58,391 nucleotides of DNA from an uncultured Armatimonadetes bacterium (lineage in GTDB: Bacteria > Armatimonadota > Armatimonadia > Armatimonadales > Armatimonadaceae): the NCBI GenBank assembly GCA_903881535.1, contig CAIRTT010000055.1, positions 1 through 58,391 of the forward strand, written 5' to 3'. The position numbers were made by a program, and so were the translations under genes. Positions 18,232-37,043 of the stretch are shown here, one piece after another; within the stretch, counting starts at the first letter, position 1, and every line of letters begins with the position of its first letter. The notes under the pieces were generated by a model that saw nothing but the letters and a program-made list of their open reading frames with translations, was not told the DNA's origin and ran no database searches.

Positions 18232-18260
18232 AATCTTTCTGCCTTTCTTTAAAACAGGTG

Positions 18261-18319
18261 TTGACAACCTGCAAAAGTATTGTACACTAACCCTACGTTT
18301 CAAGAAAGGATAGTGTAAC
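18261..18319 (+). promoter_or_regulatory. sigma70-type promoter plus conserved leader for the replication block
   Basis: TTGACA (18261) - 16 nt - TACACT (18283), then AGAAAGGATAG (18303..18313) 6 nt before the GTG at 18320. Confidence 0.6.
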
Positions 18320-18649
18320 GTGTCTAAAGTTTATGTAGTGCAAGAGATGCCCAATCACGACATCGCCTCTGCAATGAAGTTCGGTGAGTTGCAAGTTTTG
18401 CTGCCCTCCAATACTCAAGTTGCTTTTTCCACCGCGCCAGTTGTGCGCCGGCTGCGAAACAAGCTGCGAGAGTACAAGGATGGCGATTACCTGCTGCTGA
18501 CCGGTGATCCCGTAGCAATTGGCTTGGCCTGCTCAGTTGCCGCGTTGTATAACTCTGGCCGGATGACACTTCTCAAATGGGATCGCCGTGAGAGAATGTA
18601 TATCCCCGTGAAAGTCGATGTAACACAGAATGGAGAAAGTGATGACTGA
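18320..18649 (+). CDS. hypothetical protein
   Basis: 109 aa with a GTG start after the conserved leader. Confidence 0.6.
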   Translation: MSKVYVVQEMPNHDIASAMKFGELQVLLPSNTQVAFSTAPVVRRLRNKLREYKDGDYLLLTGDPVAIGLACSVAALYNSGRMTLLKWDRRERMYIPVKVDVTQNGESDD

Positions 18650-29673: not shown

Positions 29674-29764
29674 TTTATTGTGGGAAACCCTTATGGGAAT
29701 ATATACAGGGTGGGAATGTACACAGGGTGTGGATTTATACAGAGTGGTGGTCTATATGTGGGTT
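29674..29764. repeat. iteron-like array of imperfect 13-18-bp direct repeats
   Basis: Units are atatacagggtggga, atgtacacagggtgtgga, tttatacagagtggtggt and ctatatgtgggtt, plus weaker units upstream (ttattgtggga, cttatggga). Confidence 0.6.
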
Positions 29765-29801
29765 TTGATCTAAGGAGGGGGGTTTTTATGTGTTTTTGCG
29801 G

Positions 29802-30021
29802 TTCCCTATAGAACTTTTTAGGGTAAGAGGTGTTTTTATTTTTTTAAAACGTCAAAATGGCGTAATAGACGTAATGGTGTAAGAAGTGAGTGTTTATGCG
29901 GGTTGTGGACTAGACGGTGACATTACAGGGGTAGTTGAGAGACGTAATTACTGGGATGTCCCAGACTTTTTTTTTGGAAGGTTTTTTTTTCATCGATACC
30001 CCTAAAAAGTTCTATAGGGAA
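29802..30021. repeat. 22-bp perfect inverted repeat pair separated by 176 bp
   Basis: ttccctatagaactttttaggg (29802..29823) is the reverse complement of ccctaaaaagttctatagggaa (30000..30021). The interior holds an AT-rich tract, AGACGTAAT x2 and T9-GGAAGG-T9. Confidence 0.85.
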
Positions 30022-30130: not shown

Positions 30131-30361
30131 ATGTTACAAATAGAGAAAGATATTCCTGTTCCGGAGCAGACAACGAAGTATCCGTTCAAGGATATGGAGA
30201 CGGGCGACAGCATCTATTTTGAGGATGAGAGACAGGCCAACAGTGCCCGTGTATCGGCATTGCGGTTTGCGGGCCGTCAGGAGGCCGTCTGGGGCTTTAC
30301 GCTGCGAAAGACGGACCCAGACAGGGATAAGGTAGGATGGCGGCTCTGGAGGACTGAATAA
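30131..30361 (+). CDS. small conserved phage protein
   Basis: Start at MLQIEKDIPVPE with GGAG 9 nt upstream. The track start at 30053 would overlap the promoter. Confidence 0.55.
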   Translation: MLQIEKDIPVPEQTTKYPFKDMETGDSIYFEDERQANSARVSALRFAGRQEAVWGFTLRKTDPDRDKVGWRLWRTE

Positions 30362-31026
30362 TGGGCAAGAAGGACGTTTGGAATGTGCCCCCTGTCACGC
30401 CTGATAAGGCGCGCAATAGGTTGGCCACTCCCGTCAAACCCCTGAAGAAGTACAAAAGCCTTAGCGACAAGGAATGGACCTTTGTTCAGGAGCTTGTTGC
30501 GGGTGATGGACGGGTGACCATGAAGGAGGCAGCGCTTCGCGCAGGCTATACGGAAGTGAGCGCCTCTGTGATGGCGTGGAAGCTCACGAACCCTGATATC
30601 AATCCTCACGTGGTGTCGGCAATTCAGGCTTACCGTGCTGAATTGGCATCCAAGTACAACACGTCCTACGAGCGGCACATGAAGGACCTGCAGACGATCA
30701 GGGACAAGGCTCTGGAAGCAGGTGCGTACGCAGCTGCTGTACAGGCCGAATATCGCCGTGGCCAAGCCTTGGGTACGATCTACGTAGAGCGCAAGGAAAT
30801 CAGGCATGGCACGATCGACAGCATGAGCAAAGAGGAAGTGCAGCGCAAGCTGGACGAATTAAAACGGCTATATGGCGGTCCCCCACCGACTGCCTTGATT
30901 GATGCCGATACCGGAAAGGTGCTCGACAGTGTCGCAAGAGAAAAAGACCCCGCTTTTGAATCTGGAGTGGAAGAACCTCCGACTGACATTTTTGAACTGG
31001 ACCCCTCCGATGGCCCAGACTCCTGA
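30361..31026 (+). CDS. terS: terminase small subunit (Terminase_2-like)
   Basis: Pattern LSDKEWTFVQELVAGDGRVTMKEAALRAGYTEVSASVMAWKLTNPDINPHVVSAI, followed by a coiled-coil region. Confidence 0.7.
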   Translation: MGKKDVWNVPPVTPDKARNRLATPVKPLKKYKSLSDKEWTFVQELVAGDGRVTMKEAALRAGYTEVSASVMAWKLTNPDINPHVVSAIQAYRAELASKYNTSYERHMKDLQTIRDKALEAGAYAAAVQAEYRRGQALGTIYVERKEIRHGTIDSMSKEEVQRKLDELKRLYGGPPPTALIDADTGKVLDSVAREKDPAFESGVEEPPTDIFELDPSDGPDS

Positions 31027-31444
31027 GGCGCGCTTTTCTGCACGTGTTCGCGATGGCTTGGGCGCGGTCGGATGCGATGTGGAGCGAATCGAAAACAGGG
31101 TAAACCTTGGCGTGTCCGACATGGTGGTCGGCGTGGGTTCGCGCTATGTCACGATCGAGCTCAAAGCGGTTACCGCGGGGCTTAAGGTTACGCTGCGCCC
31201 CCACCAGATTGCCTTTTTGCTTCGCCATGGCCGCGCCGGCCGGCCGGCGTTTGTGCTTGTGTGGCAAGCAGCGCGCAAGGATAGCCCTGACTTTGTCCAT
31301 TTGTACCGCGGGCGCGATGCGATTGCCCTTGCTGAATCGGGTTTGCGCCTGATGCCTATGGCCGCATGGCCAAGCCGTGGCCTACCATGGCAAGAGCTGA
31401 AGGATGCCTTGATAGATGATGACTATCAGGGGGCTGAAAATTAA
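31010..31444 (+). CDS. VRR-NUC / PD-(D/E)XK nuclease
   Basis: Start at MAQTPEARF, a 17-nt overlap with terS. Contains GVSDMVV...VTIELK...LRPHQIAFL. Confidence 0.6.
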   Translation: MAQTPEARFSARVRDGLGAVGCDVERIENRVNLGVSDMVVGVGSRYVTIELKAVTAGLKVTLRPHQIAFLLRHGRAGRPAFVLVWQAARKDSPDFVHLYRGRDAIALAESGLRLMPMAAWPSRGLPWQELKDALIDDDYQGAEN

Positions 31445-31456
31445 AGAAAAAATCAA

Positions 31457-31524
31457 TTAGACAGGGCTCAAATTGGCGTAGAATTAACGCATCGGATCCC
31501 CCGATACCTAGAAAGGATAGAGAG
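31457..31524 (+). promoter_or_regulatory. cassette module A (promoter, short hairpin, conserved leader)
   Basis: TTAGAC (31457) - 16 nt - TAGAAT (31479). Hairpin atcgg/ccgat at 31491..31505. Leader TAGAAAGGATAGAGAG lies directly before the ATG at 31525. Confidence 0.6.
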
Positions 31525-31734
31525 ATGAAAACCTTAACCCATGAACAAGAGGCATTCGTTCAGGCTTATGCGCGAATCGTTGCGGTGGCATCCGAGGAAG
31601 TCGTTCGGATTTACTTTGAGATGGACGATGACGATAAGTTTTATGAAACATACCAACATGAGTATGCAAGCGTAACGGATGCCTATCTGCTGTGGGACGC
31701 TGCCCGCCGTTACGAAGCAGGGGAGACAAAATGA
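31525..31734 (+). CDS. hypothetical protein
   Basis: 69-aa ORF after module A. Confidence 0.6.
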   Translation: MKTLTHEQEAFVQAYARIVAVASEEVVRIYFEMDDDDKFYETYQHEYASVTDAYLLWDAARRYEAGETK

Positions 31735-32099
31735 AAAACGTTTACGCTTATTTCAGGGACTGTAAAAACTGCGGCTTAGAAATCCCTGACTTTGACCAAT
31801 TCGCCCGATATAACGCCGTTGAAATTGATCCGGTTTTTGTTTTTTATGATGACCTTGGGAACGTTAACGGGTACGAGCGAACCGATGAGGCGGAAATTAA
31901 ATTGCACCCTTATTGGAATGTGGTGTATAGCGTGTATTTGCACCACGACGCAATGCACCCCGACAATCGCGGCTTTGGTGGTGCCCAATGCGTTGGAGAC
32001 TTTCCTTCGCTTGAGATTGCTCAGACCTTCGCGGCTTTTATGGATCAGCTGCTAAACCTTGCAAACTACATCAAAACAACACCGGAGAAAACAGCATGA
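31731..32099 (+). CDS. hypothetical protein
   Basis: Start at MKNVYAYF with GGGAGA upstream and an ATGA overlap. Confidence 0.6.
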   Translation: MKNVYAYFRDCKNCGLEIPDFDQFARYNAVEIDPVFVFYDDLGNVNGYERTDEAEIKLHPYWNVVYSVYLHHDAMHPDNRGFGGAQCVGDFPSLEIAQTFAAFMDQLLNLANYIKTTPEKTA

Positions 32100-32260
32100 C
32101 CGTTTCCGAATTGCTTGCTCAGTTTAAAGATGTCGCCGGCGACACACTGGTTTATGTCTGGTTAGGTGGCGAAAGGCACCCAGTTTTGAACGTGGATGAT
32201 TCTTTTTTAAGCCCAAAAGACGGCGGATTTATTGAAATAAATGTGTTGACCGATGCTTAG
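32096..32260 (+). CDS. hypothetical 54-aa protein
   Basis: Hand-translated as MTVSELLAQFKDVAGDTLVYVWLGGERHPVLNVDD...NVLTDA. ATGA overlap. Its 3' end carries the module B promoter. Confidence 0.5.
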   Translation: MTVSELLAQFKDVAGDTLVYVWLGGERHPVLNVDDSFLSPKDGGFIEINVLTDA

Positions 32261-32311
32261 GTTGTGTTATACTTAACCCTGTGGAATAACCCACACTTAG
32301 AAAGGATAGAG
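32246..32311 (+). promoter_or_regulatory. cassette module B
   Basis: TTGACC (32246) - 16 nt - TGT-TATACT (-10 at 32268). Hairpin tgtgg/ccaca at 32280..32295. Leader CTTAGAAAGGATAGAG lies before the ATG at 32312. Confidence 0.65.
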
Positions 32312-33016
32312 ATGTTAAAAACTGTAGCCGTCATGTCTAATAAAAAGACCGGTCCCATTGCAGGCACTTACCGCAGTGGGGCGCATGAGACCTATGCAAC
32401 ATGCCCTAAAACGTGTGGATTGCATCCAAAAAGCGAGACCGGATCAGAACAGATTGATCCGGAATACTTGGCGGCATTGCTTGAAGCCGTACCGCGTAGG
32501 GGCATTGCATGGACTTATTCACACTTTGACGCTAAGGGTTTACCCATGTGGGAACAGGGCAAAACTGTGATCAATGCAAGCTGTGACACGGAAGCCGAAG
32601 CCGTGGCAGCTGTGAAAATTGGCCGGCCGGCAACATTTGCCGCGCCCTTGAATACCGCGGACCAATGGCCCAAAACTGTGGAAGGCGTTAAATTTGTCCG
32701 GTGCCCTGCCGATATGTCCGAATCATTCACGTGTCAACAATGCGGGAATGGATCCCCACTGTGTGCCCGCGGTGACCGTGATTTTGTTGTGGTGTTTGTT
32801 GCGCATGGTAGCGGTGCCAAAAAAGTAGGAACCGATCAAGAGGGCGGATGCTATGCTGCACAGGGTCCGGTAGCTATGCAATGGCACGGAACCCGCAAAA
32901 CAGGTGCCGCCAATGACGCTCAGGCCTTGCGCGCTTTCGCTAAGTCTCTCCCGTTCGGGTCCATGCTGCGCCATCATGTCGCCGGCGATATTGGACGGGA
33001 CCGGATCCAATGCTGA
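32312..33016 (+). CDS. Cys-rich protein, GP88-like (tentative)
   Basis: Start at MLKTVAV after the conserved leader. Contains CPKTCG, FTCQQCGNGSPLC, GGCYA and LRHHVAGDIG. Confidence 0.5.
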   Translation: MLKTVAVMSNKKTGPIAGTYRSGAHETYATCPKTCGLHPKSETGSEQIDPEYLAALLEAVPRRGIAWTYSHFDAKGLPMWEQGKTVINASCDTEAEAVAAVKIGRPATFAAPLNTADQWPKTVEGVKFVRCPADMSESFTCQQCGNGSPLCARGDRDFVVVFVAHGSGAKKVGTDQEGGCYAAQGPVAMQWHGTRKTGAANDAQALRAFAKSLPFGSMLRHHVAGDIGRDRIQC

Positions 33017-33210
33017 TATTTGCCGTACTAATCATGCTCATTTTGTGGTGGATTGTTGACTTATTCGATCCTAATGGTTAACCGGACCGGCAAAACCCGC
33101 GGTTCCTGCCGGTTTCCCTCTGTGGTTATGCATTTATTGCATAACCTTGCTGAGTTAAGCCGGTCAGGGTAAACCTGCCCCGTGGTCCCTGTTGCTTGCT
33201 GCGTTAAACG

Positions 33211-33244
33211 TGGCGCTTGGCGCTTGGGCCGTGGCGCTTGGCGC
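33211..33244. repeat. GGCGCTT boxes / 13-bp direct repeat tggcgcttggcgc x2
   Basis: Copies at 33211..33223 and 33232..33244. Further TTGGCGCG and GTGGCGCGCG copies lie at 33274..33298. Confidence 0.8.
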
Positions 33245-33257
33245 GGCTTGCAGTGAT

Positions 33258-33275
33258 AGTTAGTGCTCACTAACT
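33258..33275. promoter_or_regulatory. 18-bp palindrome agttagtgctcactaact
   Basis: 8-bp arms that are exact reverse complements around a 2-nt centre. Confidence 0.7.
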
Positions 33276-33298
33276 TGGCGCGCGGACCGTGGCGCGCG

Positions 33299-33320
33299 CA
33301 TTGTTTCACGTGAAACAATG
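33299..33320. promoter_or_regulatory. 22-bp perfect palindrome cattgtttcacgtgaaacaatg
   Basis: The two 11-nt halves are exact reverse complements, with a CACGTG centre. Confidence 0.8.
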
Positions 33321-33358
33321 GCCGCGGGCCGGCTATCGGGGCGCGTGGTTTGATAGGA

Positions 33359-33442
33359 AAATACAATGGGCCGTGGCCCACGGACCGCGGTATAATTGAG
33401 ACACTGCGGCACGGTGCCGCAGTACTTAGAAAGGATAGAGAA
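33359..33442 (+). promoter_or_regulatory. cassette module C
   Basis: AAATACAATGG (33359) - GC-rich palindromic 23-nt spacer - TATAAT (33391). Hairpin actgcggca-cgg-tgccgcagt at 33403..33423. Leader CTTAGAAAGGATAGAGAA. Confidence 0.65.
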
Positions 33443-33640
33443 ATGATGAGCTTTATTACACCTTCAAGGAAATACCACGTAGAGAGCCACGGTAACGGGT
33501 GGGCTTATGAGGTAACCCACCGCGAGAGCGGCGCGTCGTTCTGGGTTCAAGACCACGACGCGGAACAGCTGCAGCGTGACACGGACGACTTCACACAAGA
33601 GGATATCTTGTCTGAATATTTAGACATGTTGGGGGAATAA
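33443..33640 (+). CDS. hypothetical protein
   Basis: 65 aa, start at MMSFITPS after the leader. Confidence 0.6.
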   Translation: MMSFITPSRKYHVESHGNGWAYEVTHRESGASFWVQDHDAEQLQRDTDDFTQEDILSEYLDMLGE

Positions 33641-33641
33641 C

Positions 33642-33770
33642 ATGACGCACGACGAAATTCGGGAATACTACGATTCCCACCTCAACATGACGCTGCGAGA
33701 GCTCTCGCAAATGACCGGCTTGAGCATACCCGTGCTCAAGGCAATTATTTTGGAAGGGGCCGTTATATGA
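33642..33770 (+). CDS. 42-aa helix-turn-helix-like protein
   Basis: Hand-translated as MTHDEIREYYDSHLNMTLRELSQMTGLSIPVLKAIILEGAVI. ATGA overlap with the next gene. Confidence 0.5.
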   Translation: MTHDEIREYYDSHLNMTLRELSQMTGLSIPVLKAIILEGAVI

Positions 33771-34165
33771 GCTGCTTTGTTGTTTCCCCACTGCACATCG
33801 ATATCCTTGTATCGTGGGCCATGGCCCACAAGGCCCCGTGCTTTCCGGCACCCTTGACGCCCGTGATGGTTGCTAACCTGTTGGCTGACGCCAACAATCA
33901 GGCTTATGCAGAACGCTACAAGGAACCAGTGACAAACCACTACCGGTTTGAATTTCGAGAGACCGCGGGAAAGGTGCCGGCCCTGCAGATTCTTAAGGCC
34001 TGTCGCTCCCTTAAGTACCAGTGCAGCGACTGGCGCGAGTGGAAAGAAAGCCGCGCGTTTCAACTGGTTGACGCTATTGAGAGTATGGCAATTCATAAGC
34101 TCCCAGGCTATGACGACATGTTGTGGGAGCTGACCCCGTATCTGCGGAACAGTCTTCCCGCATAA
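33767..34165 (+). CDS. hypothetical protein
   Basis: 132-aa ORF. Confidence 0.6.
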   Translation: MSCFVVSPLHIDILVSWAMAHKAPCFPAPLTPVMVANLLADANNQAYAERYKEPVTNHYRFEFRETAGKVPALQILKACRSLKYQCSDWREWKESRAFQLVDAIESMAIHKLPGYDDMLWELTPYLRNSLPA

Positions 34166-34167
34166 CG

Positions 34168-34190
34168 CTATCGGGGCCATGCCCCGATAG
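34168..34190 (+). terminator. GC hairpin after stop codon (terminator-like, no U tract)
   Basis: ctatcgggg-ccatg-ccccgatag: a 9-bp perfect stem. Confidence 0.45.
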
Positions 34191-34192
34191 AT

Positions 34193-34275
34193 AAATACAA
34201 TGGCCCGCGGGCCATTGTCCGCGGTATAATTGATTCAACCAACAATCAGTTGGTCAACCTAGAAAGGATAGAGAA
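34193..34275 (+). promoter_or_regulatory. cassette module D
   Basis: AAATACAATGG (34193), 16-bp palindrome atggcccgcgggccat, TATAAT (34225), weaker hairpin accaac/gttggt (34238..34254), leader CCTAGAAAGGATAGAGAA. Confidence 0.65.
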
Positions 34276-34704
34276 ATGTCAAACCCCTTCCGTAAACACG
34301 TCAGCAACCTGTTCGGCTCACGCGGCTGTGATATCGACAGCGCATTGAATGACGCTAATGAAATTGTGCAGGCCCTGCCGGTCGAATCACGCGCGCATGC
34401 AATGACCGCGCTCATGATACTGGTCAACACTGCAGCCGGTGCCTTTGATCAGGCTCAGGGTCCAAGCCCTGAGAAGCTCGCAATACTGGACCTGATCCGG
34501 ACCGAGATAGGTAACTGGGCAAGTAGTAACCTTGACGATCACATTGACGGGTGGATCGGTGACAACTTGGACAATCACCTAGACAACTGGGCAACTAACA
34601 ACTTGGACATGGACCACAGCATTGAGGAGTGGATGAACAGCAACATACAAGGTACGGTTAGCGAAGCAATAGACAACATGGACCTAGTGGTTCGTGTGCG
34701 ATAG
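34276..34704 (+). CDS. hypothetical protein with NLD-x-H/W repeats
   Basis: 142 aa. The C-terminal half reads NLDDHIDGWIGDNLDNHLDNWATNNLDMDHSIEEW. Confidence 0.6.
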   Translation: MSNPFRKHVSNLFGSRGCDIDSALNDANEIVQALPVESRAHAMTALMILVNTAAGAFDQAQGPSPEKLAILDLIRTEIGNWASSNLDDHIDGWIGDNLDNHLDNWATNNLDMDHSIEEWMNSNIQGTVSEAIDNMDLVVRVR

Positions 34705-34706
34705 TT

Positions 34707-34793
34707 AAATACAATGGACCTCAGGCCACGGCCTGAGGTATAATCTAAGTACTGGATCAGCCGATCCAGTACAACTCAGAAAGAAGAAACACC
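34707..34793 (+). promoter_or_regulatory. cassette module E
   Basis: AAATACAATGG (34707), hairpin acctcaggc-cacg-gcctgaggt running into TATAAT (34739), UTR hairpin gtactggatc-agcc-gatccagtac (34749..34772), degenerate leader AGAAAGAAGAAAC. Confidence 0.65.
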
Positions 34794-35069
34794 ATGACTA
34801 AGATCCTCATTATCGACAGCACCCGTTATGCTTTACCTGCGGGCATGAGCACCAAGGACCAACAGGCATTAGCCGGCTTTCTGGTCACACTGACCAGAGT
34901 GGATTATGAATACTGCTACGGGGATGAAGAGAATGCCTACTACGCAAGAGACGGGGCAGCCATCAGCATCAGTGAGCAGGAGCTGATGACCAAAGCCGAG
35001 GCCAAAGCCAAAGCAGAAAAGACCCGCTTAGAGTACGAAGCGAAGAAAGCGGCACAAGAAAAAGTATAA
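34794..35069 (+). CDS. hypothetical protein
   Basis: 91-aa ORF with a Lys/Glu/Ala-rich C-terminus. Confidence 0.6.
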   Translation: MTKILIIDSTRYALPAGMSTKDQQALAGFLVTLTRVDYEYCYGDEENAYYARDGAAISISEQELMTKAEAKAKAEKTRLEYEAKKAAQEKV

Positions 35070-35097
35070 GCAACTGGGGGCCACGGCCCCCATTATT

Positions 35098-35153
35098 GTG
35101 TTATACTCTAAGTACTGAAGCACGGTGCTTCAGTACTTAGAAAGGATAGAGAG
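35098..35153 (+). promoter_or_regulatory. cassette module F
   Basis: TGT-TATACT (-10 at 35102), 15-bp perfect UTR stem (35108..35122 paired with 35126..35140, loop cgg), leader CTTAGAAAGGATAGAGAG. Confidence 0.65.
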
Positions 35154-35342
35154 ATGAACGCACTTACAACACCCGACCAGATCCAAGCCTACCGCAGGCT
35201 AACCCTAATCCAGATGCTCAAGCTGGAAATCAGGGGGATGCATAAGAAAGGCCGAAGCGCCTACAGTATCCTGAAAGAAGAGACAGGACTGAAGGGCACA
35301 AGGCAGCAGCTGCTAGAGCAGCTAACCAAACCCACACAGTAA
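35154..35342 (+). CDS. hypothetical protein
   Basis: 62-aa ORF. Confidence 0.6.
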   Translation: MNALTTPDQIQAYRRLTLIQMLKLEIRGMHKKGRSAYSILKEETGLKGTRQQLLEQLTKPTQ

Positions 35343-35411
35343 CGCAACAGCGCTCCGCGGCCCCGCGGAGCGCATGCATGAGCCTTCCGACAAGGGGGGA
35401 GGGCCATAACG

Positions 35412-35450
35412 AGGCCCTAGCTCTAGAGCTAGGGCCTTCTCCCTGTTTTA
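35412..35450 (+). terminator. 26-bp perfect palindrome followed by a T-rich tail (terminator closing the cassette array)
   Basis: aggccctagctct/agagctagggcct (35412..35437), then tctccctgtttta. A second hairpin, gcgctccgcgg/ccgcggagcgc, lies at 35350..35373. Confidence 0.55.
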
Positions 35451-35552
35451 GCCCCAGAATTATGCCCAGAGAACCTGGACCCCCACCCCCAGAAAAGGCC
35501 CCCTTGGTCCGTGATCCGTGATCCTGGGTTATATTTATAAAAATTTCAAAAC

Positions 35553-37043
35553 GTGGCCCTTGGTCCACGCACCTATATGCAGCCAATTCCTGACGATGTC
35601 CAAGCGGAGCAGTTAAAACTTGAACTGCGGTTACGTACTTTGGAGGCGCATGATCGTGCAACCACGGGCTTTTTAGATTTCTGTCGATATGTGTGGCCGG
35701 AGATGTTGGTTGGTGAGCATCATTTGCGGATTGCGAAGGCGCTGGACAGGGTGGTTTCTGGAGAGTGCAAGCGGTTGATGATTGCGATGCCCCCGCGCCA
35801 TGGTAAGAGTCAGATGGGCAGTTATTTGTTTCCGGCATATCTCATGGGCCGTGATCCGACGTCCAAGTTAATTGTGGGATCCCACACGGCGGAGTTAGCG
35901 CAGCGTTTTGGCCGGATGATCAGGAACCTTGTGGATGATGAGCGGTACAAGGAGTTATTTCCTGGAACGTCTTTGTCGGTGGATTCCAAGGCTGCGGGCC
36001 GGTGGTCCACGAGCCAGGGAGGGGAGGCGTTTTTTATTGGTAAGGGTGGTGCAATGACGGGCCGCGGTGGTGACGTGGTTATTTTGGATGATATTTTGGA
36101 TGAGCAGGATGCGTTGTCGGATACGGCGATGGAGAACACGTTTGAGTGGTACACGTCGGGGCCTCGGCAGCGCCTGCAGCCCAATGGTTCTATTGTGGTG
36201 ATTAATACGCGGTGGAAGACGGATGATTTGACGGGGCGTTTGCTTAAGCAGCAGGGGAACTTGAAGGCGGATCAGTGGGAGGTGTTGGAGTTTCCGGCGA
36301 TCTTACCCAGTGGCAATGCCCTTTGGCCGGGGTACTGGAAGATTGAGGAGTTGGAGAAGGTCAAATTATCGATTGGGATGCAGAAGTGGAATGCTCAGTG
36401 GCAGCAGCAGCCTACGGGATCGGAGGGTGCGATCTTGAAGCGGGAGTGGTGGAGGAAGTGGAAGAATGATGTACCGCCTGTTTGTGAGTATGTGATCCAG
36501 AGTTATGACACGGCGTACTCTAAGAAGGAGACGGCGGATTATTCTGTGATATCCACGTGGGGTGTATTTTTTCCCAGTGCTGATTCGGGGCCAAATTTAA
36601 TTTTGTTGAATGTGCGCCGTGGTCGGTGGGACTTCCCGGAGTTAAAGCGTATTGCCAAGGACGAGTATCGGTACTGGAATCCTGACAATGTATTGATTGA
36701 GGCGAAGGCTACGGGTACGCCGTTGCAGCAGGAATTGAGGAAGATGGGGATACCGATTCAGATGTATTCTCCGGGGGGCAGGCGGCATGGTCAGGACAAG
36801 GTGAGCCGTGCGAACGCTGTGGCTCCGTTGTTGGAGAGCGGGATGATTTGGTATCCTGAGGATGAGGAGTGGGCGCAGGAGATGGTGGAGGAGTGCGCCG
36901 CGTTTCCTGTTGGGAGTCACGATGACCAGGTGGATTCAGCGGTAATGGCTTGGACGCGGTTTCGTGCTGGTAATTTCATTTCGCTGGAAGATGATGACAA
37001 CGAAGAGAAAGAGCCGGATAATAGGATACTGGAATATTATTAA
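35553..37043 (+). CDS. terL: terminase large subunit
   Basis: Walker A-like MPPRHGKS, Walker B VVILDDILDE, and nuclease motifs SYDTAYSKKETADYSV and GSHDDQVDSAVMAW. The start is ambiguous (GTG 35553 or ATG 35577) and neither has an RBS. Confidence 0.9.
   Translation: MALGPRTYMQPIPDDVQAEQLKLELRLRTLEAHDRATTGFLDFCRYVWPEMLVGEHHLRIAKALDRVVSGECKRLMIAMPPRHGKSQMGSYLFPAYLMGRDPTSKLIVGSHTAELAQRFGRMIRNLVDDERYKELFPGTSLSVDSKAAGRWSTSQGGEAFFIGKGGAMTGRGGDVVILDDILDEQDALSDTAMENTFEWYTSGPRQRLQPNGSIVVINTRWKTDDLTGRLLKQQGNLKADQWEVLEFPAILPSGNALWPGYWKIEELEKVKLSIGMQKWNAQWQQQPTGSEGAILKREWWRKWKNDVPPVCEYVIQSYDTAYSKKETADYSVISTWGVFFPSADSGPNLILLNVRRGRWDFPELKRIAKDEYRYWNPDNVLIEAKATGTPLQQELRKMGIPIQMYSPGGRRHGQDKVSRANAVAPLLESGMIWYPEDEEWAQEMVEECAAFPVGSHDDQVDSAVMAWTRFRAGNFISLEDDDNEEKEPDNRILEYY

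Follow-up and report, generated by a model that had tools for sequence, protein, structure and literature searches.

Contig CAIRTT010000055.1, a 58.4-kb stretch of DNA (58,391 nucleotides [nt]; here called the window) with the appearance of a complete tailed-phage genome, carries six + strand gene cassettes between its small and large terminase genes, at 31.4 to 35.2 kb, and in each of them a hairpin begins at, or one base beyond, the transcription start predicted from the promoter. The hairpin recurs in related viral contigs, where its stem stays paired while its sequence varies. We think it likely that this element is a protective RNA stem-loop at the 5' terminus of mRNAs made by the host RNA polymerase, and that it is one part of shuffled cassettes resembling the PeSL elements of T4-type phages.

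A shared cassette layout between the terminase genes

The window encodes a large terminase (terL, 35553-37043), a portal protein, a capsid protein, a family-A DNA polymerase, a primase, and helicases, and the small terminase gene (terS) lies at 30361-31026. The best matches of the large terminase were to DSL-LC04, a lake phage assembled from a metagenome (64% identity), and to the pelagiphages HTVC027P and HTVC023P (51 to 56%). The phage is an uncultured, freshwater-type member of an abundant, aquatic, podovirus-like lineage related to pelagiphages. Megablast of positions 33000-36000 found no DNA relative among cultured phages, and blastn of 31440-35560 against cultured phages returned a single match, the DUF7227 gene of DSL-LC04, so that the cassette itself was found in no cultured phage. 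We also detected no phage RNA polymerase among the window proteins, as no RNA polymerase family was matched and the largest open reading frame (ORF) has 1157 amino acids (aa), which makes use of the TATAAT promoters by the host polymerase the economical reading. Apart from one DUF7227 protein, the cassette genes are small ORFans, and no candidate RNA-binding protein was identified.

All six cassettes (modules A to F; Table 1) follow one order, with a sigma-70-like -10 hexamer, 6 to 7 nt, the hairpin, 2 to 5 nt, the ribosome-binding block TAGAAAGGATAGAGA, and ATG. The window holds five exact copies of the block, whereas 0.5 matches would be expected even with as many as three mismatches allowed, and the block has diverged in one cassette (module E). 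A preliminary description of this DNA had placed three perfect hairpins, now assigned to modules C, E, and F, between the -10 (TATAAT or TATACT) and this block; we confirmed all three at their positions, together with the weaker hairpins that it had noted at the matching place in modules A, B, and D. The six stems all differ in sequence, and the loops, from module A to module F, are atccc, aataac, cgg, aatca, agcc, and cgg.

The usual initiation site of sigma-70 RNA polymerase is the base reached 6 nt after the -10. This is also where the hairpins of five modules start, and that of module D starts 7 nt past the -10, placing the first paired base 7 or 8 nt after the hexamer in all six. With +1 predicted from the -10 spacing, each hairpin in the window therefore begins at the predicted start site, or one base later in module D.

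To evaluate these leaders, we folded them as RNA from the predicted +1 and compared their stabilities with those of shuffled sequences (z scores; Table 1). Each of the six folded leaders has zero or one free 5' nucleotide, and every fold leaves the Shine-Dalgarno sequence and ATG open. The leaders of modules C, E, and F, for which the preliminary description had proposed this check, are clearly more stable than their shuffles, while those of modules A, B, and D are weak (z of -0.8 to -2.0). When we scanned the window for a -10 followed after 5 to 7 nt by a perfect stem of at least 6 bp, we obtained five sites on the + strand, all at 33.4 to 35.1 kb, and none on the - strand, with an average of 0.6 sites in shuffles; one of the five is the promoter-spacer stem of module E and not a leader hairpin. 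A search of 29 to 36 kb against Rfam at E values up to 1 gave no match.

The hairpin keeps its register in related phages

A terminase-based scan of IMG/VR identified 46 related loci, and a scan for the ribosome-binding block added more. A search of virome databases had been suggested in the preliminary description; in these scans, the cassette layout was found again in dozens of related contigs, with the promoter consensus aaaaatCAATTGGAC-17 nt-TATAAT. The mean folding z of the 47 distinct leaders that follow a strong -10 was -3.8, with 42 of the 47 more stable than 95% of their shuffles, and the first paired base fell at offset 7 or 8 from the -10 in 25 of them (53%), compared to about 10% in shuffles. 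Using a stem finder that accepts only Watson-Crick (WC) pairs, we collected 78 distinct hairpins with stems of 5 to 13 bp (mean, 7.7 bp); 46 of these start at offset 7 to 8 and 62 at offset 5 to 8. Perfect stems of at least 7 bp were present in 43% of 109 leaders but in only 0.8% of shuffles.

The base at offset 7, the predicted +1, is A in 47 of the 78 hairpins (60%), and ACTG occupies offsets 7 to 10 (+1 to +4) in 23 (29%). The preliminary description had treated ACTG...CAGT as a conserved stem base. It is indeed frequent, but it is not universal, since just three of the six window modules have it, and by its position we read it as a common initial transcribed sequence plus its pairing partner. 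The proposed conservation of the flanking CTAAGTA and TACTTAG did not hold: ACTTAG is the 5' edge of the ribosome-binding block, and the CTAAGT that lies between the -10 and +1 of module F in the window is CCAATT, and unpaired, in the same module of a relative that is 90 to 96% identical to the window (L001). The most common loops among the 78 hairpins were AGCC (9), CGG (8), GGGC (5), and GGCC (4), and a GCA-cgg-TGC apex recurs; this loop preference could reflect either common descent or a binding partner.

There are also 21 promoters just 14 to 15 nt from the ribosome-binding block, whose leaders fall below the searchable stem length and, where folded, are stemless, which is consistent with an aim of avoiding a long naked 5' end. 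In DSL-LC04 the cassettes are built alike, except that their ribosome-binding block is different (ACATACAGGAGAAA). At least one TTGACA...hairpin...AGAAAGGTATA junction in HTVC027P was left uncounted because its promoter register is ambiguous. A literature search for an earlier description of the motif in phages of the HTVC023P type returned nothing directly usable.

Stems vary in sequence and remain paired

Orthologous genes of different phages are preceded by unrelated, well-paired hairpins, and one hairpin type is also found in front of different gene families. In L001, the module F hairpin is ACCGCAGCA-cgg-TGCTGCGGT, which differs from that of the window by two double compensatory changes in 9 bp. 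The module E hairpin is identical in L001, and other relatives have module E variants that are compensated (GGACC/GGTCC) or contain a G.U pair (GATCT).

To quantify covariation, we aligned 14 hairpins with triloops and 21 with tetraloops on their loops, without gaps, in place of mis-registered MAFFT alignments. The covariation scores were 0.48 for the triloop and 0.70 for the tetraloop hairpins, compared to 0.16 and 0.22, respectively, in shuffles, with none of 500 shuffles scoring as high, and they dropped to 0.14 or less when the pairing partners were slid. In these alignments, pairing fades beyond about 8 to 9 bp. A minimum spanning tree of the nearest variants contained 52 double changes from one WC pair to another, 11 changes between WC and G.U pairs, none between WC and A.C, and 5 disruptive changes. 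The suggestion that the upper stems differ through compensatory covariation was thus borne out, and these comparisons strongly support the conclusion that the stems are kept paired by compensatory change while their sequence varies.

Mismatches carry a sense-strand RNA signature

At the DNA level, a transition in a palindrome yields G.T and A.C mismatches with equal likelihood, whereas a sense RNA tolerates just G.U. Among internal 1-by-1 mismatches of promoter-linked hairpins, we counted 13 G.T/T.G and 2 A.C/C.A (P = 0.007), and over all sites the counts were 33 and 7. This excess of G.U over A.C points to a structure formed by the + strand (sense) RNA and not by DNA. The preliminary description had proposed a selected structure of RNA or single-stranded DNA; selection on the hairpin is strongly supported, and the mismatches favor RNA. 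We also considered quasi-palindrome correction by template switching as a neutral source of compensation and rejected it, since it would account for neither the constant -10 register nor the asymmetry between G.U and A.C.

Features of the cassette region and its surroundings

The positions of the cassette features are collected in Table 1. A second set of GC-rich palindromes lies in or abuts the -35/-10 spacers of the promoters (33366-33381, 34197-34218, 34718-34739, and 35075-35092), and the 10-bp spacer stem of module E reaches from the -35 into the opening bases of TATAAT. A stem of at least 5 bp ending no more than a few nt from the -10 was present in 61 of 123 distinct promoters of the relatives, and these stems showed no G.U bias. 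The spacer palindromes may be regulator sites, or else terminators of the PeSL kind housed in the promoter that follows. The two hairpins that close the array, GCGCTCCGCGG-cc-CCGCGGAGCGC and a 26-nt perfect palindrome (35412-35437), are probably terminators that insulate the structural operon.

Table 1 Cassette features in the window, positions numbered from the first base
Feature	Position	Strand	Remarks
Module A -10, TAGAAT	31479..31484	+	From sequence reading; -35-like TTAGAC upstream
Module A leader hairpin, ATCGG-atccc-CCGAT	31491..31505	+	5 bp; 7 nt after -10; leader -6.6 kcal/mol, z -0.8 (weak)
Module A ribosome-binding block TAGAAAGGATAGAGA and ATG (31525)	31509..31527	+	
Module B -10, TATACT	32268..32273	+	TGT extended -10; TTGACC -35 at 32246
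Module B leader hairpin, TGTGG-aataac-CCACA	32280..32295	+	5 bp; -5.8 kcal/mol, z -1.9
Module B ribosome-binding block and ATG (32312) of DUF7227 gene	32298..32314	+	
Module C promoter	33359..33396	+	AAATACAATGG box (A-rich segment and -35-like TGGGCC), GC-rich palindromic spacer, TATAAT 33391-33396
Module C leader hairpin, ACTGCGGCA-cgg-TGCCGCAGT	33403..33423	+	9 bp; 7 nt after -10; -15.3 kcal/mol, z -4.0
Module C ribosome-binding block and ATG (33443)	33427..33445	+	
Module D promoter	34193..34230	+	AAATACAATGG box, palindrome ACAATGGCCC-gc-GGGCCATTGT (34197-34218), TATAAT 34225-34230
Module D leader hairpin, ACCAAC-aatca-GTTGGT	34238..34254	+	6 bp; one unpaired base after predicted +1; -8.1 kcal/mol, z -2.0
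Module D ribosome-binding block and ATG (34276)	34260..34278	+	
Module E promoter	34707..34744	+	AAATACAATGG box, 10-bp spacer palindrome 34718-34739, TATAAT 34739-34744; TGGACC-18 nt-TATAAT
Module E leader hairpin, ACTGGATC-agcc-GATCCAGT	34751..34770	+	8 bp from predicted +1; -11.7 kcal/mol, z -3.7
Module E 10-bp form, GTACTGGATC-agcc-GATCCAGTAC	34749-34772	+	Needs upstream read-through RNA
Module E diverged ribosome-binding block AGAAAGAAGAAACACC and ATG (34794)	34778..34796	+	
Module F terminator-like hairpin TGGGGGCC-ac-GGCCCCCA, T-rich tail, TGT-TATACT	35075..35107	+	-10 at 35102-35107
Module F leader hairpin, ACTGAAGCA-cgg-TGCTTCAGT	35114..35134	+	9 bp from predicted +1; -11.6 kcal/mol, z -2.7
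Module F 15-bp form, CTAAGTACTGAAGCA-cgg-TGCTTCAGTACTTAG	35108-35140	+	Requires bases upstream of +1
Module F ribosome-binding block and ATG (35154)	35138..35156	+	
Two strong GC-rich hairpins closing the cassette array before terL	35350-35373 and 35412-35437	+	

The conserved translation-initiation block exceeds a Shine-Dalgarno sequence: its consensus, (a)CAACCT/ACTT-AGAAAGGATAGAG-A-ATG, covers about 25 nt and is found in many contigs (window 31506-31527 and equivalents), and the pelagiphage HTVC027P has a similar block, AGAAAGGTATA. The block may be a translational enhancer or a homology patch for cassette exchange. Outside the cassette region, at 18240-18320, a TTGACA-17 nt-TACACT promoter precedes AGAAAGGATAGTG and there is no leader hairpin, so the ribosome-binding block can exist without the stem-loop. 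An attempt to sort operon-internal from promoter-proximal blocks by their distance to the upstream ORF was abandoned, since the TAG within the block closes spurious frames and corrupts the classification.

Upstream of module C, about 330 nt of noncoding DNA (33017-33340) contain dense CTTGGCGC...CCGTGGCGC direct repeats and, at 33293-33326, a 34-nt near-perfect palindrome, and motifs of the GGNCCGYGG type cluster at 33.2 to 34.2 kb. DSL-LC04 has a similar GGCCCGTGG-rich noncoding stretch ahead of its large terminase gene. Small-gene indels separate the window from L001, which lacks a 54-aa ORF (window 32096-32260) and has about 290 extra nt past the module C genes (L001 3724-4017). Further upstream in the window are three tandem 17-nt repeats, TGGGAATATATACAGGG (29694-29744), adjoined by a perfect 22-nt inverted repeat (29802-29823/30000-30021) that encloses 176 T-rich nt. 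The - and + strand genes diverge at this region (29694-30021), the repeat is kept in L001, and we regard the region as a candidate origin, pac site, or genome end.

Discussion

The start of the hairpin at the predicted +1, the freedom of its stem sequence, and the open ribosome-binding site together make a protective 5' stem-loop the best-supported explanation. In this model, the host RNA polymerase would transcribe the cassettes, which drive small ORFan genes in the variable terS-terL region, from sigma-70-like promoters. A cassette would consist of an A-rich or -35 box, an often palindromic spacer, the -10, 6 nt, a hairpin of 5 to 13 bp at +1, 3 to 9 nt ending in CAACCT/ACTT, and then AGAAAGGATAGAG-ATG. 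With zero or one free nucleotide at the base-paired 5' end, the triphosphate would offer RppH, a pyrophosphohydrolase, a poor target, and a paired end bearing a monophosphate would escape both the RNase E 5' sensor and 5' exonucleases such as RNase J, so a longer mRNA life would be expected. The hairpin would also keep the short ribosome-binding block single-stranded whatever its context. It is established that RNase E acts more than 10 times faster on RNAs with an accessible 5' monophosphate than on those with a triphosphate or a paired 5' end, RppH prefers single-stranded 5' ends, and the ompA and papA mRNAs are stabilized by 5'-terminal stem-loops (review PMC3997798, citing Emory 1992, Bouvet 1992, and Bricker 1999). 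A 5' stabilizer was among the roles listed in the preliminary description, and it is the one that best fits the geometry; our data show the structure, its -10 register, its upkeep by compensatory change, and its RNA signature, and from these we infer the start site, the use of the host polymerase, and the gain in stability.

Several observations weigh against this explanation. The position of +1 is predicted from -10 spacing, in this phage and its relatives alike. Modules A and B carry mere 5-bp stems with z values of -0.8 and -1.9, a stem of at least 5 bp is missing from about 18% of long leaders, and module C of the close relative L001 has a G.G mismatch. The loops are nonrandom, which a stabilizer served by any hairpin does not predict. 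Finally, the members of our covariation alignments were picked for having hairpins, so the percentage of paired positions is circular, and the independent evidence is that from the position statistics and the ortholog comparison.

Other roles for the hairpin deserve weighing. It could serve mainly as an insulator or enhancer of translation, in which a self-paired 5' end frees the ribosome-binding block for a standard rate of initiation and stability is secondary. This would suit a hairpin that always ends 3 to 9 nt before AGAAAGGA, a Shine-Dalgarno sequence and ATG that are open in all six window folds, and cassettes that precede many unrelated genes, but it gives no reason for the stem to begin exactly at the predicted +1, and omitting about 20 nt, as in the short-leader promoters, would insulate equally well. 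We therefore consider it fairly unlikely as the main role, although it is compatible with a protective stem-loop. It is unlikely, too, that the apical loop is the binding site of a phage or host RNA-binding protein that represses or activates translation or tags the cassette mRNAs. A few loop sequences do predominate, with C-G closing 19 of 21 AGCC, GGCC, AACC, and GGGC loops and A-U closing 14 of 14 CGG and TGG loops while the basal stem varies around them. However, the six loops of the window share no single recognition motif, around half of the 78 hairpins have a loop found in no other, descent from duplicated cassettes can account for the shared apices, and we identified no candidate protein. 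The single translational regulator envisaged in the preliminary description fits poorly with six hairpins of one genome that differ in both stem and loop. As a more specific variant, +1 hairpins with a C-RGCC-G or GCA-YGG-UGC apex might form a lineage-specific tag, read by a factor, that marks, times, or protects the mRNAs of shuffled cassettes, an idea that we rate as quite unlikely.

If the palindrome acted as DNA, it could be the operator of a dimeric regulator over +1, or a cruciform or recombination site for cassette exchange. Perfect palindromes do overlap the predicted transcription start, cassettes are clearly shuffled between relatives, and recombination of PeSL elements in T4-type phages takes place within or close to the stem-loops (PMC2839356). 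Yet six different palindromes in one genome offer no common operator, and their centers are paired as well, which a half-site operator does not need. The ratios of G.T to A.C (13:2 among mismatches and 11:0 among single steps) would not arise from double-stranded DNA or from hairpins on either strand. Being the variable part of the cassette, the hairpin is also its worst homology patch and so a poor candidate for the recombinogenic element once proposed; the conserved promoter and ribosome-binding blocks are better ones. We regard a DNA-level role as very unlikely. Most improbable of all is a site at which RNase III or another endonuclease cuts polycistronic read-through RNA into monocistronic mRNAs, as in the T7 early genes. 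The hairpins are intergenic, most cassettes have no intrinsic terminator between them, so read-through RNA would contain the hairpins, and the read-through form of module F reaches 15 bp. The stems in the relatives, at 5 to 13 bp (mean, 7.7 bp), are nevertheless well under about two helical turns, the 15-bp extension of module F is not kept in its ortholog, Rfam gave no match, and cleavage would leave the -10 register without explanation. Two further candidates were rejected. The hairpins are not intrinsic terminators, since their tails, ACTTAGAAAGG or CAACCTAGAAAGG, have no U-tract. N4-type hairpin promoters, which are used by a giant virion RNA polymerase, have a hairpin upstream of +1 in place of the -10 and -35; here the hairpin follows a canonical TATAAT, and no giant RNA polymerase was found.

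If the start sites are confirmed, the protective stem-loop would be a natural, many-times-replicated case of a phage equipping each mobile accessory-gene cassette with its own promoter, a hairpin that protects the 5' end, and a standard ribosome-binding site. It would carry the PeSL idea, that of regulatory cassettes enabling gene shuffling, beyond T4-like phages to an aquatic lineage related to pelagiphages. The roughly 80 natural hairpin variants could be used to study how much 5' structure mRNA protection needs, and synthetic biology could use the cassette as a compact, off-the-shelf expression module.

Comparison with known systems

Among the closest parallels are the stabilizers of ompA (hp1) and papA (Emory, Bouvet, and Belasco 1992; review PMC3997798), which share with the cassette hairpins a stem-loop at the extreme (here, predicted) 5' end with almost no unpaired 5' nucleotides, a dependence on structure over sequence, and a short single-stranded segment before the ribosome-binding site. 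Unlike them, the hairpin described here, whose stabilizing effect we infer, recurs as a module of phage promoter cassettes, up to six times per genome and in many relatives. A phage parallel is the class III phi10 leader of T7. As a literature search returned no directly usable reference for the T7 5' stem-loop, we made the comparison on the T7 record itself. Folded from its annotated start, phi10 RNA has an 8-bp stem-loop from +1 followed by an open ribosome-binding site, so that both systems combine a conserved phage promoter, a stem-loop at +1, and a strong, unpaired ribosome-binding site. The T7 hairpin is much the same at several class III promoters, of which phi10 was the one folded here. 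T7 uses its own RNA polymerase, whereas the present phage has sigma-70-like promoters, no detected phage polymerase, and stems that are all different. The RNase III sites of the T7 early region are likewise intergenic hairpins in a phage multigene transcription unit, but they are much longer, irregular helices of about 20 bp, compared to the 5 to 9 bp that each window cassette's own promoter would yield in register with its -10, which makes the RNase III role raised in the preliminary description unlikely.

In T4-type phages, PeSL elements combine a promoter, a stem-loop, and a Shine-Dalgarno sequence in repeated units that lie beside the ORFans of plastic regions, where they mediate shuffling (PMC2839356, PMC4122927). 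The cassettes share with them an AT-rich segment, a sigma-70-like promoter, a Shine-Dalgarno sequence, a start codon at the 3' edge, repetition beside ORFans, a GC-rich stem-loop near the promoter, and gene shuffling between close relatives. The PeSL stem-loop, however, is a terminator upstream of the promoter, while the hairpin here lies downstream of the -10, at the predicted +1, and lacks a U-tract. Upstream GC-rich stems are present here too, but, unlike those of PeSL, they unusually sit inside the -35/-10 spacer. PeSL hosts are T4-like myoviruses, and this phage, with a terminase nearest to those of DSL-LC04, HTVC027P, and HTVC023P, is not T4-like. The best reading of these comparisons is that a known trick, the 5' stabilizer hairpin, is used here very systematically and embedded in a PeSL-like cassette.

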